Assembly (NCBI GenBank): GCA_947367845.1
Contig: CANBES010000005.1
Span: 5,072 to 69,071, forward strand
Length of the DNA stretch: 64,000 bases
Direction of reading: 5' to 3'
Source: an uncultured Clostridium sp.
GTDB taxonomy: Bacteria > Bacillota > Clostridia > TANB77 > CAG-508
A model generated the notes under the pieces. It searched no databases. It saw only the letters and a list, made by a program, of their open reading frames with translations, and had not been told where the DNA came from. Shown here piece after piece: positions 12,666 through 46,530 of the stretch. Made by a program: the position numbers and the translations under genes. Position 1 is the stretch's first letter; every line of letters starts with the position of its first letter.

Positions 12666-12715
12666 GGACATTTGGGGGACGTTTCCTTTTGGACATTTTG
12701 TCCGTTTTGGGACAT
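12665..12715 (+). repeat. GGGGAC-core repeat, type B
   Basis: GGGACATTTGGGGGACGTTTCCTTTTGGACATTTTGTCCGTTTTGGGACAT. Confidence 0.88.
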
Positions 12716-12741
12716 ATCTAATATATATAAGGAGAAAAATT

Positions 12742-34775: not shown

Positions 34776-35066
34776 TTAAACTCCTTCTTCTAAAAGTTTT
34801 ACTGTTGGGTTATAAATTGTCAGCGTAAAATTCTTTTTTTCAGATTCAAAATCAATGACAAGGGGAGTAATACCTGTAAGCAAATCTGTAAGAACTCTTA
34901 CAGGAAATTTCACTTTCCCAGAAAACTCTTTCAAAGTGTTTCCGAGTTCAATATCATTGGTTTGAACAATCAAATTTTCTCCATCGGTGAAGAATAGAAA
35001 ACTCGCAAAGGTTACGCACGAATCTACCTCAAAAACTTTTTTCGGTGGTTGTGTCAAGTTAGACAT
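34776..35066 (-). CDS. hypothetical protein (96 aa)
   Basis: ATG 35066 after a GAGAGG RBS on the minus strand. No family recognised. Confidence 0.5.
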   Translation of the reverse strand: MSNLTQPPKKVFEVDSCVTFASFLFFTDGENLIVQTNDIELGNTLKEFSGKVKFPVRVLTDLLTGITPLVIDFESEKKNFTLTIYNPTVKLLEEGV

Positions 35067-35150
35067 AAAAACCTCTCTTTCTATAAAATAAGCTAATTGC
35101 TTATACACTAAGTATAACATAGAATATAACATAAAACAAGCAAGATGATA

Positions 35151-35501
35151 CTAAACTTCAATTATTTTTAAATTAAACTTATCTTCAAATACTTTTTTCT
35201 TAGCAATATACTCTTTTGTCTTAAACCCCTTAACATCAATAACCTCTGGAGATTTATTATTATAAAAAACAATAAAATCCGCTTTATACTTTAAACCAGG
35301 AGCTAAAATAAAAGTAGGTTGCAAACAGAAACCATCAATCTCTTTAGCTTGTAATTTTAATTTTAACTCACAATAATAATCAGCTTCTTTTTGACTATCA
35401 AAAGTATTACCATCAATAGACACTTTCTTTGCCCTATACTTACTTTTACGAATAGATTTATTCGTAAAATTCTTATAATCTTCAACACTCCAATGCTCCA
35501 T
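35151..35501 (-). CDS. DUF1064 domain-containing protein (phage-associated PD-(D/E)XK-like fold)
   Basis: MEHWSVEDYKNF...KYRAKKVSIDGNTFDSQKEADYYCELKL...DFIVF...EVIDVKG fits the DUF1064 pattern. Confidence 0.65.
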   Translation of the reverse strand: MEHWSVEDYKNFTNKSIRKSKYRAKKVSIDGNTFDSQKEADYYCELKLKLQAKEIDGFCLQPTFILAPGLKYKADFIVFYNNKSPEVIDVKGFKTKEYIAKKKVFEDKFNLKIIEV

Positions 35502-35606
35502 AAATAAAATCTCCCTATAAATAAAATCTTTACCAATTATATATAAAAAACAAAAAAAGTGCAACAAGAATTGAAATTTTAAAAATAAAGTTATATAATT
35601 GCAAGT

Positions 35607-35637
35607 GATGTTTTTAGGGACGGAGCAAAAAAACATC
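35607..35637 (+). repeat. GGGGAC-core hairpin repeat, type C
   Basis: GATGTTTTTAGGGACGGAGCAAAAAAACATC. Confidence 0.85.
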
Positions 35638-35655
35638 GATTTTCTGAAGAAGGAG

Positions 35656-35703
35656 TGTCCCCAATGGCAAAAAATTGCCAAAAAGGTCCGTCCCCAATGG
35701 CAA
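35656..35703. repeat. GGGGAC-core repeat, type A (one partial unit plus one full unit)
   Basis: GTGTCCCCAATGGCAAAAAATTGCCAAAAAGGTCCGTCCCCAATGGCAA. Adjacent to a type-C unit. Confidence 0.85.
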
Positions 35704-35718
35704 TAAGGAGAAAAATAG

Positions 35719-37398
35719 ATGAGATATATAAATAAAGAAAAATTGGATAAAATAAAATTAGAACCAAATAATATGTATGTTGTAATAGATTTTGACAGAA
35801 CGATAACAGCGAAAGACAGCCAAGATTCGTGGGATGCAGCAGCAATTATGCTTGGTGAAGAATTTGCAAAAAAATCATATGAGTTATATCAAAAATATAG
35901 GCCAATTGAACAAGACTATACAATAACATATAAAGAAAAAAATAAAGCAATGGAAATATGGTATAAATCATGTATGGATTTGTATTATGAATATGGTCTA
36001 ACGAAAGAAAAGTTAGAGAAATCAGTACAAAAAAGTGGATTAAAATTTAGAGATGGACTGGAAGACTTCTTAAAAGAAATGAATGAAAAAGATGTTCCAG
36101 TAATAATATGTTCAGCAGGGATAGGAAATGTGATTGAACTATATCTAAAAGCTAATAATTGTTATTACAAAAATATGTATATAATAAGTAATTTTTTGAC
36201 GTTTAATGCAGAAGGTCAGATAGAGGAATATAAAAACAAATTAATACACACAATGAATAAGACGATAAATGGGAATTTACCAGAAGAAATTCAGAAAAAG
36301 TTAGAAGGAAGGCAGTACAAATTGTTATTAGGAGATACAATAGAAGATAAGCAAATGCTAGGTGAAGGCGAAATGTCAAGCACAATAACAGTTGGATTTT
36401 TGAATGATAAAATAGAACAAAATTTAGAACTTTATAAAAAAGAATTTGATGTATGCATAGTAGAAGATGTGTCCCAAAATGGACAAAATGTCCAAAAGGA
36501 AACGTCTCCAAATGTCCATGACGTTATAATAGTAGGGGCAGGGCCTGCTGGAATATCGGCTTCGCTTTATGTAGGGAGAGCGAATTTAAAAACTTTGGTG
36601 TTATATGCAGGAAAGGGTAAAAATAATGAAGATGCGAGTGCTTTAGAAAAAACAGATAAAATAGAAAATTACTATGGATTTGCAAAAGGTGTAAATGGAA
36701 AGAAATTATATGAAGAAGGAATTGAGCAAGCTAAAAGTATCGGAATAGAAATAAAAAATGAAGAAGTGGTTAAAATAGAAAAAGAAGACAAATTTATTAT
36801 AACAACATCAAAAGCTCAATATAAAGCAAAATCTGTAATCTTAAGTACAGGAAACAAGAAAAACAAGCCGAAGATAGAAGGAATTAAGGATTTAGAAGGA
36901 AAAGGCGTAAGTTACTGTGCAATTTGTGATGGTTTTTTCTACAAAAACAAAAATGTAGCAGTCCTAGGAAACGGAGATTATGCTATTTCGGAAGCGAATG
37001 ACTTAATTAACATAGCAAATAACATAACAATTTTAACAAATGGTAAAACGGCACCTGAATTTAGAGCTGATAATGTAAAGATAGACACAAGAAAAATTAA
37101 AGCAATCAAAGGTAAAAATAGAGTTGAAAAAGTAGAATTTGAAGACGGAAACAACTTAGAGGTTGATGGGGTTTTTGTGGCTCAAGGAGTTGCTGGAAGC
37201 AGAGAATTCGCCAAAAAACTAGGATTAGCAACACAAAAAGAAAATATAATTGTAAATCAAAATATGGAAACTAACATCAAAGGATTATTTGCTTGCGGAG
37301 ATTGTACAGGTGGAGTTTTACAAATAGCAAAAGCTGTATATGAGGGAATGACAGCTGGAATGCAAGCTATTAAATATATAAAAATGGAGGAAATGTAA
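35719..37398 (+). CDS. trxB: single ORF fusing an HAD-superfamily (UMPH-1-type 5'-nucleotidase-like) domain to thioredoxin-disulfide reductase through a repeat-encoded linker
   Basis: N-terminal VVIDFDRTIT (HAD motif I). A type-B repeat at 36467-36517 is read in frame as VSQNGQNVQKETSPNV. This is followed by DVIIVGAGPAG, the CAICDG redox centre and GNGDYAISEA of TrxR. No stop codon and no obvious internal start. Confidence 0.75.
   Translation: MRYINKEKLDKIKLEPNNMYVVIDFDRTITAKDSQDSWDAAAIMLGEEFAKKSYELYQKYRPIEQDYTITYKEKNKAMEIWYKSCMDLYYEYGLTKEKLEKSVQKSGLKFRDGLEDFLKEMNEKDVPVIICSAGIGNVIELYLKANNCYYKNMYIISNFLTFNAEGQIEEYKNKLIHTMNKTINGNLPEEIQKKLEGRQYKLLLGDTIEDKQMLGEGEMSSTITVGFLNDKIEQNLELYKKEFDVCIVEDVSQNGQNVQKETSPNVHDVIIVGAGPAGISASLYVGRANLKTLVLYAGKGKNNEDASALEKTDKIENYYGFAKGVNGKKLYEEGIEQAKSIGIEIKNEEVVKIEKEDKFIITTSKAQYKAKSVILSTGNKKNKPKIEGIKDLEGKGVSYCAICDGFFYKNKNVAVLGNGDYAISEANDLINIANNITILTNGKTAPEFRADNVKIDTRKIKAIKGKNRVEKVEFEDGNNLEVDGVFVAQGVAGSREFAKKLGLATQKENIIVNQNMETNIKGLFACGDCTGGVLQIAKAVYEGMTAGMQAIKYIKMEEM
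36467..36517 (-). repeat. GGGGAC-core repeat, type B, embedded in frame inside the HAD-TrxR ORF
   Basis: ATGTGTCCCAAAATGGACAAAATGTCCAAAAGGAAACGTCTCCAAATGTCC. Near-identical to the copy at 45707. Confidence 0.88.
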
Positions 37399-37399
37399 A

Positions 37400-37714
37400 A
37401 TGAGTGTTTTAAAAATAACAAGTGAAAACTATGAAGAAGAAGTATTAAATTCAAAGAAAAAAGTATTAATTGACTTTTATGCAGATTGGTGCGGACCATG
37501 TAAAATGATGGCACCGATAGTAGAAGAAATTGCTGATGAATTAGAAGGGAAAATAAAAGTTGGAAAAGTAAATGTTGATGATAATCAAGATTTAGCAATG
37601 GAATACGGAATTATGAGTATTCCAACATTAGTAATAATAGAAAATGGAGAAGCAGTTAGAACTCTTGTAGGGTTTAGAAGCAAAGAAGAATTAATAGAAA
37701 TTTTATCAAAATGA
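37400..37714 (+). CDS. trxA: thioredoxin
   Basis: WCGPC active site; 104 aa; immediately downstream of trxB. Confidence 0.93.
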   Translation: MSVLKITSENYEEEVLNSKKKVLIDFYADWCGPCKMMAPIVEEIADELEGKIKVGKVNVDDNQDLAMEYGIMSIPTLVIIENGEAVRTLVGFRSKEELIEILSK

Positions 37715-37743
37715 TGTTTTTGGGGACGGAGCAAAAAAACATC
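37713..37743 (+). repeat. GGGGAC-core hairpin repeat, type C (overlaps the trxA stop codon)
   Basis: GATGTTTTTGGGGACGGAGCAAAAAAACATC. The TGA of trxA is at 37712-37714. Confidence 0.9.
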
Positions 37744-37764
37744 ACTAAAAAAGGTATTAAAACA

Positions 37765-38647
37765 TTAAATTATTAATGCTTTAATATCTTTTGGAAGCCC
37801 ACAACTAAAACTTAAAAACTTTTTAGAAACAGGATGAACACACTCAATTTGGTAACTATGTAAGGCCTGGCGCGAAATCAATGAAGAAGCACATCCATAT
37901 AAAGTATCGCCAACAATTGGATGACCAATAGCTTTCATGTGAACTCTAATTTGATGTGTTCTACCTGTTTTTAATTTACAATCAACAAGGCTATAATTAT
38001 TCAATTCTCTAATAACATCATAATCAGTAATAGCAATTTGCCCAGCAGTTCTATTAACTTCTCTTTCTATAATACTTCCAGCTTTTCTTGCGATAGGAAA
38101 AGAAATTGTGCCAAACTTATTTTCCAAAATGCCGAGAAACAATACACAGATATTCTTTTTTGAAAATACCATTTTGCATTTGTCTAATAAACTCTTCATG
38201 AATATATTCACATTTAGCCAAAATAACAAGTCCAGAAGTATTTAAATCAAGCCTATTTACAGGCCTTATTTTCTTTTTTAAACCAATACTATCAAAATAA
38301 AACCTAATACCATTAGATAAAGAACTATCATAATGAAGTTGAGAAGGATGAATTGCAATTCCAGCAGGTTTATTTACAACAATAAACCACTCATCTTCAT
38401 AAATAATATCTAAATTCATTTTAGTAGGCACAATATTAGAATTATCTTCATCATAATCAAAATCCGCAATAATAATATCACCAGGGACTGTATTATTACG
38501 AGTATCTGTAACGATGTTGTTTTTTAATATTCTTCTATTTTTAATTAGTTTTGTATTTAGACGTGTTGAAAAATGAAATTCATTTGATAAAATTTCGTTT
38601 ATATTTTTATAATTATCATTTTCTTTTACAATATAAGTAAGCTTCAT
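37765..38647 (-). CDS. RluA-family 23S rRNA/tRNA pseudouridine synthase (RluD-like); continuous only after a +1 shift at CGG 38134-38132
   Basis: S4-like N-terminus, IIYEDEWFIVVNKPAG, RLDLNTSG (catalytic Asp) and HQIRVH. The two ORF-track pieces (38117-38782 and 37765-38229) join as ...EYLCIVS-GILENKFGTISFPIAR when the C of TCT CGG CAT is skipped. Confidence 0.8.
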
Positions 38648-45549: not shown

Positions 45550-45706
45550 TAACAAGCAATAAAAGTCATAAAGTTAATAGAAAAGCTTAATTTAAAAGAT
45601 AAATAGTAAAAAAGAAATTATATTTAAAATAAAAACTAATATAATTTCTTTTTTTTATAGAAAAACAGGAATTTATATGGTATAATTTTACAAGACGAAA
45701 AAAGAG

Positions 45707-45758
45707 ATGTGTCCCAAATTGGACAAAATGTCCAAAAGGAAACGTCCCCAAATGTCCC
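45707..45758 (-). repeat. GGGGAC-core repeat, type B
   Basis: ATGTGTCCCAAATTGGACAAAATGTCCAAAAGGAAACGTCCCCAAATGTCCC. Directly abuts the rsmE RBS. Confidence 0.88.
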
Positions 45759-45776
45759 AAAAGGAGAAAAATAGTT

Positions 45777-46530
45777 ATGCCAAAGTTTTTTGTAAAAGAA
45801 GAGCAAGTGGAAGATAGGAAAATAGAGATAATTGGACAAGATGTAAAACACATAAAAAATGTTTTAAGAAAATCAATAGGTGACGAAATAGTAATTTGTA
45901 ACGCAACAAATGGCAAAGATTATTTATGTGAGATAAGTGAATTTGAAGATAGCAAAATCAATTGTATTATAAAGGAAAAGCTAGAGACAAGTGTAGAAAC
46001 TAATATAAAAGTAACTATTATGCAAGGTTTGCCAAAGGCTGACAAAATGGAATTAATAATTCAAAAGTCAGTTGAGCTAGGTGTGTATGAAATAATACCG
46101 ATTGAGATGAAGAGATGTATAGTAAAGTTAAATGGTAAAGATGCAAATAAAAAAAATGAAAGGTGGCAAAAAATTTCTGAAGTAGCAGCCAAACAATGTG
46201 GAAGAAATATAATTCCACAAATAAAATCAGTAATAAATGTAAAAAATGTTTGTAATTTACTAAAAGAATATGATATAGTATTAGTAGCTTATGAAAATGA
46301 AAAAGAAACAACTATAAAGCAAGAGTTACAGAGAATAAAAACACAATACAAAGATGAAGAAATAAAAATTGCAATTATGATTGGTCCAGAAGGCGGAATT
46401 GCTGAAGAAGAAATAGAATTACTAACACGGAAATGGTGCCAAAACAATATCATTAGGAAAAAGAATTCTAAGAACAGAAACAGTAGCATTAAATGTTTTA
46501 AGTGTAATAATGTATGAACTAGAAAATTAG
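45777..46530 (+). CDS. rsmE: 16S rRNA (uracil1498-N3)-methyltransferase RsmE; C-terminus recovered only after a +1 shift at CGG 46428-46430
   Basis: MPKFFV... PUA-like N-terminus. After IGPEGGIAEEEIELLT the zero frame gives a nonsense tail. Skipping C46428 gives GNGAKTISLGKRILRTETVALNVLSVIMYELEN, the canonical RsmE C-terminus, to TAG 46528-46530. Confidence 0.82.

Follow-up and report, generated by a model that had tools for sequence, protein, structure and literature searches.

An in-frame REP-like repeat in the linker of a HAD-thioredoxin reductase fusion gene from uncultured gut Clostridia

In a 64,000-nt stretch of DNA from an uncultured Clostridium sp. (GenBank assembly GCA_947367845.1, contig CANBES010000005.1; the whole stretch is hereafter called the window), the open reading frame (ORF) at 35719-37398 joins an N-terminal HAD phosphatase domain of the UMPH-1 type to a C-terminal thioredoxin reductase (TrxR), and a short palindromic repeat, here called type B, lies in frame between the two (Table 1). 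This ORF is a genuine, selected fusion, and it encodes the sole TrxR of the organism. Related assemblies carry the fused gene both with and without the repeat, and the explanation that, taken as a whole, we consider probable is that an older fusion gene later received, in its linker, an in-frame insertion resembling a repetitive extragenic palindrome (REP). The genome is a metagenome-assembled genome (MAG) of 52 contigs (1.50 Mb, 29.6% GC), and the window sequence is also present in mouse and rat gut metagenomes.

The fusion gene and its linker

An original prediction, made from the sequence alone, had described a complete HAD-type domain followed by the TrxR fold, and Pfam matches to both halves of an ORF without internal stop bear this out. 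The UMPH-1 profile (PF05822) matches residues 44-253 of the fusion (E 7.7e-55; 186.5 bits against a curated cut-off of 23.7), and the translation holds HAD motif I (DFDRT, residues 24-28), CSAGIG with the S/T of motif II, and GDTIED as motif IV. Both the profile score and the motifs (DxDxT, S/T, GDxxxD) are those of the UMPH-1 pyrimidine 5'-nucleotidase family, and this half is probably a nucleotidase. Pyr_redox_2 (PF07992) covers residues 267-543 (E 1.3e-37).

The TrxR half contains the FAD-binding GAGPAG (residues 273-278) and the redox-active CAIC (residues 400-403) of low-molecular-weight (low-Mr) TrxRs, and 50 TrxR chains in the PDB match it at E <= 1e-20. It is not a canonical NTR, because the NADPH motifs GGGDSA and HRRxxxR are missing and GNGDYA and LTNGKTAPEFRA stand in their place. 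At the HRRD position, TNGK (residues 440-443) aligns with TQGK of the best PDB match (5nii, E 3.6e-60). A TQ/NGK motif defines the NAD(P)H-independent TRi enzymes (PMC5627308), and ferredoxin-dependent TrxBs are a clostridial speciality (PMC10880999). These motifs assign the TrxR half to the TRi/FFTR type, which is NAD(P)H-independent, and its electrons would probably come from ferredoxin or another non-pyridine donor.

Several lines of evidence indicate that the fusion is maintained as a gene. Between fused alleles, both halves are under purifying selection (dN/dS 0.05-0.12 for the two halves, and 0.06-0.12 for the HAD half, at a synonymous divergence, dS, of 0.3-0.9); the TrxR-half value against the outgroup allele L025 is unusable, as the comparison runs ungapped across an indel and into a low-coverage, frameshifted tail. 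Both domains are folded in an AlphaFold2 model built on a 54-sequence alignment (mean pLDDT 78.9), in which residues 250-264 have pLDDT <50 and no secondary structure and lie between the last strand of the HAD domain (245-248) and the first of the FAD fold (265-272). No second TrxR or UMPH-1 homologue was found in the genome (estimated 99.7% complete), the other self-matches being repeat-encoded peptides. The product would be a single polypeptide of about 62 kDa whose HAD and FAD/TrxR modules fold independently, with the TrxR half probably dimerising like low-Mr TrxRs; the predicted peptides that span its linker are NGQNVQK and ETSPNVHDVIIVGAGPAGISASLYVGR.

The repeat matches exactly over 51 nt (36467-36517), and the linker V251-V266 reads VSQNGQNVQKETSPNV, followed by H267 and DVIIVGAGPAG. 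As had been read before, the junction holds no stop codon, no ribosome-binding site (RBS) and no in-frame ATG or TTG; of the codons in frame between the domains, only a GTG (36469-36471) at the edge of the repeat is of a start type, and the ATG at 36518 is out of frame. The earlier description of the repeat as a 17-aa in-frame linker thus stands as to the frame and fails as to the length and extent: the repeat-derived peptide has 16 residues, and the left-hand AGATG is native HAD coding sequence, not imported. The AGATGTG at this point encodes E249-D250-V251 and includes the GTG codon; GAAGATGTG is retained at the left flank in alleles that lack the repeat, and the HAD of an unfused congener (G011) reads TGT GAA GAT GCA at the equivalent site. 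Because this HAD also carries it, the GAAGATG to the left of the element is taken as native.

The thioredoxin gene starts 1 nt past the stop of the fusion gene, and the resulting HAD-TrxR-trx operon is bracketed by two type-C copies; the repeat kind of the upstream one also flanks, on contig C11, a gene resembling REP-associated tyrosine transposases (RAYTs). No matches to the 51-nt repeat are expected by chance in the window (expectation 0). The second forward type-B copy is non-coding and followed by an RBS and ATG, as originally described: it lies between a -10-like box, TATGGTATAAT, and AAAGGAG-N10-ATG (45777), and may be transcribed within the mRNA leader of the downstream ORF. A permissive Rfam scan of 35000-38200 returned no family.

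Table 1. Features of the fusion locus and type-B copies, in window coordinates
Feature	Position	Strand	Details
Type-B copy, reverse orientation	12672..12719	-	Repeat search; genome copy C5:17738
Type-C hairpin repeat (GATGTTTTT-GGGGACGGAGCA-AAAAACATC type), upstream of operon	35604..35642		Repeat search of window
Type-A repeat, directly 5' of fusion-gene RBS	35652..35703	+	Repeat search of window
Shine-Dalgarno (SD) AAGGAG of fusion gene	35705..35710	+	8 nt before ATG 35719; sequence
Fusion ORF	35719..37398	+	559 aa, no internal stop; ORF list and sequence
N-terminal UMPH-1/HAD phosphatase domain, aa 1-250	35719..36468	+	Motifs DFDRT, SAGIG, GDTIED
AGATGTG, left flank/left end conserved in every type-B copy	36465..36471	+	Consensus of 33 copies
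Type-B REP-like element body	36472..36517	+	With the GTG codon on its left, read as V251-V266
C-terminal TrxR domain, H267 to stop	36517..37398	+	GAGPAG, CAIC, GNGDYA, TNGK
Thioredoxin gene (WCGPC)	37400..37714	+	Own GGAGGA SD; ORF list; Pfam on orthologues L021, L026, L027
Type-C hairpin repeat over trx stop codon	37713..37746		TGA 37712-37714; repeat search and sequence
Type-B copy, non-coding, 5' leader of ORF 45777-46517	45705..45760	+	2 mismatches over 45707-45757
Type-B copy, reverse orientation	51631..51687	-	Repeat search; genome copy C5:56706

Fused alleles with and without the repeat

We searched 5.8e9 proteins for homologues and examined NCBI, ENA and Logan assemblies; the RNA-labelled runs held relatives' alleles only, and their RNA status is uncertain. 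The fusion occurs in seven protein clusters, drawn from separate assemblies, with amino acid identities of 83-93%: P0001 (93%, 562 aa), P0002-4 (87-88%, 559 aa), P0005 (locus L024; 87%, 547 aa), P0006 (locus L021; 86%, 547 aa) and P0007 (83%, 562 aa). A more distant one, P0008 (locus L025), has 66% identity over 498 aa. At the nucleotide level, the fused gene recurs in independent assemblies at 84-91% identity across the gene and in the same neighbourhood, with the order AMP-binding enzyme, small ORF, DUF1064, fusion, thioredoxin and pseudouridine synthase common to the window and its relatives.

The repeat is present in the linkers of the window (VED-VSQNGQNVQKETSPNV-HDV), L026 (VED-VSPNGQNVQKETSQNVPML-YDV), L027 (VED-ASPNGQNVQKETSPLG-YDV) and L029 (VED-VSQNGQNVQKETSPSVPSE-YDA), and absent from those of L021 (VEDVISEYDV), L024 (VEDVNLEYDV) and the outgroup L025 (GEENFKTMPINLEKSKYDV; 75% nucleotide identity). 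The outgroup is joined via an unrelated linker, which has AATTTAGAA (N-L-E) in common with that of L024; this argues that the repeat-free state is ancestral. The empty L021 and the filled L027 are 99.2% identical over the gene, and most of their differences across 9.6 kb fall at repeat sites between genes; the presence or absence of the repeat is thus a recent polymorphism. Taken together, the empty fused alleles, the empty fused outgroup and this nearly identical pair indicate that the fusion predates the insertion, and within these alleles the later arrival of the repeat is shown by the empty and filled states themselves. We also considered the empty alleles as excision products and judged this unlikely, given that they retain native linker codons shared with the outgroup and that the filled alleles carry frame-restoring indels which a precise excision would expose.

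The junctions give some detail on the insertion. In L029, the native S-E-Y codons (TCG GAA TAT) are still visible past the element, consistent with a 47-nt insertion after GATGTG and a frame-restoring loss of 2 nt, and the window allele corresponds to the L026 type except that 9 nt (CGATGCTAT) are missing from its right junction. No target-site duplication was found in the comparison of empty with filled alleles, and replacement or shortening has affected 9-12 nt of the native linker. Between L024 and L029, dS is 0.93 in the HAD half and 0.32 in the TrxR half, and this threefold difference points to recombination between lineages with a breakpoint near the linker, which complicates the counting of insertion events.

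As for the fusion itself, searches of 40 related species representatives (GTDB) matched the HAD and TrxR halves to separate genes in every case. The congener G011 has the HAD gene (262 aa, ending ...TCEDATFESVENLVF*) and trxB (MKVKYMYDIV...) in the same orientation, with 2.2 kb and two genes of the opposite strand between them. An exhaustive phmmer search of cluster representatives placed both halves together in 1 of 1.84e9 clusters at 50% identity, and the architecture is thus lineage-restricted. We infer that a deletion of about 2 kb, removing the two opposite-strand genes in the ancestor of a small clade, joined the HAD gene near codon 250 to the second codon of trxB. Later, a unit of about 47 nt of the type-B family would have inserted right after the native GAAGATG(TG) in the short linker; being free of stops in all frames, and with the reading frame preserved by small indels at its right edge, it would simply be translated. 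The repeat would add about 12-15 residues of disordered linker, and the window allele would then have lost 9 nt at its right junction by in-frame deletion. The genome encodes two RAYT-like Y1 transposases, one of which probably mobilises the repeats.

The type-B family and the standing of alternative explanations

About 33 type-B copies occur in the genome (consensus AGATGTGTCCCAAAATGGACAAAATGTCCAAAAGGAAACGTCCCCAAATGTCCC). The CGTC tag that characterises REPs is found in the core (...AACGTCCCC...) of the 33 copies, and it fits the CGTC super-family of Di Nocera et al. (PMC3733652). The consensus contains none of the six stop or anti-stop triplets and so is stop-free in six frames, a property of 0.25% of random genomic 54-mers and 0.10% of shuffles, and shared by 20 of the 33 copies. 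As DNA, the hairpin is modest (-6.7 kcal/mol, z = -3.3). Repeat types A, B and C have different stems and a common GGGGACG / CGTCCCC core. The two Y1-transposase homologues both pass PF01797, and the best NCBIfam match of both is NF047646, "REP-associated tyrosine transposase". One of them (261 aa, G000:C11 around 9590; locus L116 1330-2330) is flanked by two inverted type-C hairpins, and the other, beside tilS (G000:C4 around 62306), has type-A dimers on both sides; a RAYT flanked by inverted repeats is the classical REP-RAYT arrangement (PMC3116915).

An extragenic location, also characteristic of REPs, does not hold here: the linker copy is situated in frame within an ORF, as are at least three further type-B copies. 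Such intragenic exceptions are documented for REPs, notably in replication and repair genes, and some have been equated with Rickettsia palindromic elements (RPEs) (Di Nocera et al. 2013, PMC3733652); intragenic REPs/RPEs are also described in a review (PMC10969869). Like an RPE, the linker copy is a stop-free in-frame insertion at a linker, within the residues disordered in the AlphaFold2 model (250-264).

The other in-frame copies lie in genes of varied function. In polA (G000:C9:19752-22190), a type-B copy is read as DVSPNGQNVQKETFPNV, which replaces a native segment of 13-14 aa at the start of the 3'-5' exonuclease-like domain; close relatives carry it too, and one relative (P0123) has about 1.5 type-B copies. 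The polA frame is 813 aa long as against about 900-918 aa in congeners, and for this reason the 5'-nuclease part may lie in another frame. The idea that AGATGT was a pre-existing target in polA found no support, as the native sequence at this place differs in the available congeners (YYLKLQ...), and it derives solely from the HAD site. In murT-gatD (G000:C12:30300-32621), one frame runs through the repeat (…EKKE-DVSQNGQNVQKEISPNVPNV-KILYLYPD). Relatives at 88-93% identity are likewise fused via the repeat, many at 72-74% are fused via long non-repeat linkers, and several congeners without the repeat have a stop, RBS and ATG at the junction. The murT frame shifts at …NNDDPNVARL|GQANPNN; as the 88-93% homologues (540 aa) begin at MLQDFGQANPNN, this seems to be a conserved break and not an assembly error. 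In a congener (locus L115, G001:C28), a different long palindrome with the GGGGACG core fills the murT-gatD spacer, which suggests that the repeat super-family is genus-wide and this spacer a recurrent landing site. In comEC (G000:C7:28616-30289), a type-B copy is read in another phase (RCVPKWTKCPKGNVSKLPKLP) in the N-terminal part, after the first predicted transmembrane helix, and in tilS (G000:C4 around 62306; locus L117 43-1869) a type-A dimer (ACQKGPFPMAGTCQEGPSPLAG) is in frame just past the SGGPDS PP-loop.

Several points weigh against an older fusion with a later REP-like insertion. The step that made the fusion, a putative deletion, is drawn from the gene order of one congener, and translation through the linker is deduced from the open frame, from its conservation and from the absence of another start. 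Both RAYT-like proteins score below the curated NCBIfam cut-off of 80 bits (74.5 and 65.8), and type-B copies were seen on the flanks of neither. The Logan contigs break off at the repeat, and no single one spans the junction in the window's own strain; the contig X1 covers 36477-36800 only (0 mismatches). The right junctions differ among filled alleles, for which reason a single clean insertion event is not reconstructable. Finally, going by flanking dS, the four filled alleles should show 12-18 differences in the 35-nt core of the element, and they show 0-1 (P 1e-5 to 3e-11).

This last observation excludes a single old neutral insertion, which we rejected: at a synonymous divergence of 0.45-0.9 between the filled alleles, their core is far too conserved. 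The three explanations left are repeated recent insertion at the same spot, homogenisation by other copies, and selection on the element. Of these, recurrent insertion is favoured by the differing right junctions and by the empty and filled pair with 99.2% identity. If selection were at work, the element would be kept or renewed in the linker for a function, as a DNA or RNA hairpin, as a binding site for a RAYT or another protein, or as a flexible spacer. The near-invariant core would fit this, as would the same phase and peptide in polA and murT-gatD, close relatives included, and the DNA hairpin (z = -3.3). Set against these are repeat-free alleles that are equally intact and equally constrained, right junctions that differ as independent events predict, the lack of an Rfam family match, and a low divergence that recent repeated hot-spot insertion or gene conversion from other copies would produce equally well; we regard a retained function as unlikely, and as the best placed of the alternatives. 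A related and similarly speculative idea is that of a renewed "linker cassette", re-inserted or homogenised at AGATG(TG) in the HAD-TrxR and MurT-GatD linkers and in polA. If so, either essential genes would contain a site-specific, RAYT-driven insertion hot spot or the element would be selected for a role as DNA, RNA or peptide, and the REP-type elements of this lineage would shape, and perhaps stabilise, multi-domain proteins beyond being merely tolerated.

A further alternative, raised in the original prediction as an unusual internal start of trxB, is that the TrxR half is made, also or only, separately from the GTG at 36469. This codon is in frame, its GAT GTG phase recurs at the murT-gatD junction, and internal starts are hard to exclude from sequence. 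Yet the only purine-rich stretch nearby, AGAAG (36462-36466), ends 2 nt before it, as compared with AAGGAG or GGAGGA placed 8-9 nt upstream of the true starts in the operon, and the GTG is a GCG in the L027 allele (14 contigs). In the repeat-free alleles, GAA TAT GAC stands in the place of the ATG TAT GAT of unfused relatives, leaving no TrxR start codon, and since no stop codon intervenes, ribosomes coming from the HAD part must read through, and the fusion protein would be made in any case. With neither a usable SD nor a conserved codon, an internal start is improbable, and the prediction fared poorly on this point.

It had also proposed that the insertion itself removed the HAD stop, the RBS and the trxB start and so created a bifunctional protein. 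The window junction invites that reading, with no stop, RBS or ATG left and a linker almost wholly made of repeat, as does murT-gatD, where the nearest repeat-bearing relatives are fused and several repeat-free congeners have a stop, RBS and ATG. Comparison of the HAD/trxB junction in relatives, which the prediction had itself suggested, went the other way: L021, L024 and L025 are fused without the repeat, and they comprise alleles of the same clade as well as the 75%-identical outgroup, with sequence shared between an empty linker and that of the outgroup. Moreover, the separate genes of G011 are 2.2 kb apart with two genes between them, a distance that an insertion alone could not close, and murT-gatD fusions with long non-repeat linkers are widespread too. 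A fusion made by the repeat is accordingly very improbable. We give still less credence to an assembly artefact in which two loci were wrongly joined at a repeat that both carry, suggested by the 52-contig MAG with about 33 repeat copies at which unitig-type contigs break, because HAD-linker-TrxR recurs with the same flanking genes in independent assemblies of other samples, the repeat-free alleles are fused with no repeat there to misjoin, and there are relatives' contigs across the HAD-repeat boundary and across the repeat-TrxR boundary.

Overall, the alleles settle the direction of causation: the repeat colonised a harmless spot in an essential fusion gene and was not the maker of a bifunctional one. 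Intragenic in-frame insertion of REPs or RPEs is already known as a phenomenon, and what is new is its site in a lineage-specific HAD-TRi fusion. With at least five intragenic cases in a 1.5-Mb genome that also holds RAYT-like genes, this behaviour, known mainly from Proteobacteria and Rickettsia, is extended to uncultured small-genome gut Clostridia. The host architecture is itself rare, a UMPH-1 nucleotidase-like domain fused to an NAD(P)H-independent TrxR that is the only one of its organism. Its natural linker variants (empty, +12 aa and +15 aa) form a series for the study of linker tolerance, and the fusion enzyme could inform on the electron donor of TRi-type reductases.

Comparison with known systems

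Among TrxRs, the C-terminal half resembles DvTRi (PMC5627308) and clostridial FFTR (PMC10880999) in its low-Mr TrxR fold with CxxC, in an anaerobic host, in T(Q/N)GK standing in place of the lost GGGDSA/HRRD motifs and in an adjacent thioredoxin gene. It differs from them in the fused N-terminal UMPH-1/HAD domain and in being the sole TrxR of its genome. An additional domain on a flexible linker is also found in AhpF (an N-terminal redox domain and a TrxR-like module) and NTRC (TrxR and thioredoxin), and in all of these the TrxR module retains the dimer-forming fold. Unlike in AhpF and NTRC, the partner here is a phosphatase/nucleotidase domain without a redox motif, not a thioredoxin fold, and the HAD-TrxR architecture is limited to one cluster at 50% identity.

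The repeat is closest to the GTAG/CGTC REPs and the RPEs, which are likewise short, palindromic, multi-copy repeats, with a CGTC tag, that occur occasionally in ORFs, are translated in frame as an extra peptide and are often located in genes for replication and repair, polA being the example here; a further likeness to REPs is a RAYT-like Y1 transposase gene with sister repeats on its flanks (PMC3733652). Its likeness to RPEs is one of behaviour only; the element has about 50 nt and RPEs about 150 nt. More precisely, it measures about 47-54 nt and, unlike REPs and RPEs, has TGTCC/GGACA boxes around the GGGGACG core. The host also differs from the published cases, being an uncultured low-GC gut member of the Clostridia, and Firmicutes/Clostridia are absent from the main text of that paper (PMC3733652). 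What sets this case apart from the other REP and RPE cases is the position of the copy, precisely at the linker that connects two fused domains, and its polymorphism among strains that are 99% identical. It also differs from a classical DDE-derived miniature inverted-repeat transposable element, which has terminal inverted repeats and a target-site duplication, by the lack of a duplication at this site.

REPIN-RAYT systems (Bertels & Rainey 2011, PMC3116915; PMC5581495) are similar as well, having in common single-copy homologues of Y1 transposases with repeats in inverted orientation on either side, non-autonomous copies scattered by the dozen and, here as there, inverted dimers (of type A) that form long hairpins. 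The present system departs from them in that both RAYT-like proteins fall just below the equivalog cut-off and none is seen beside type-B copies, in that several stem types share one loop/core motif, and in that a notable share of the copies is intragenic.

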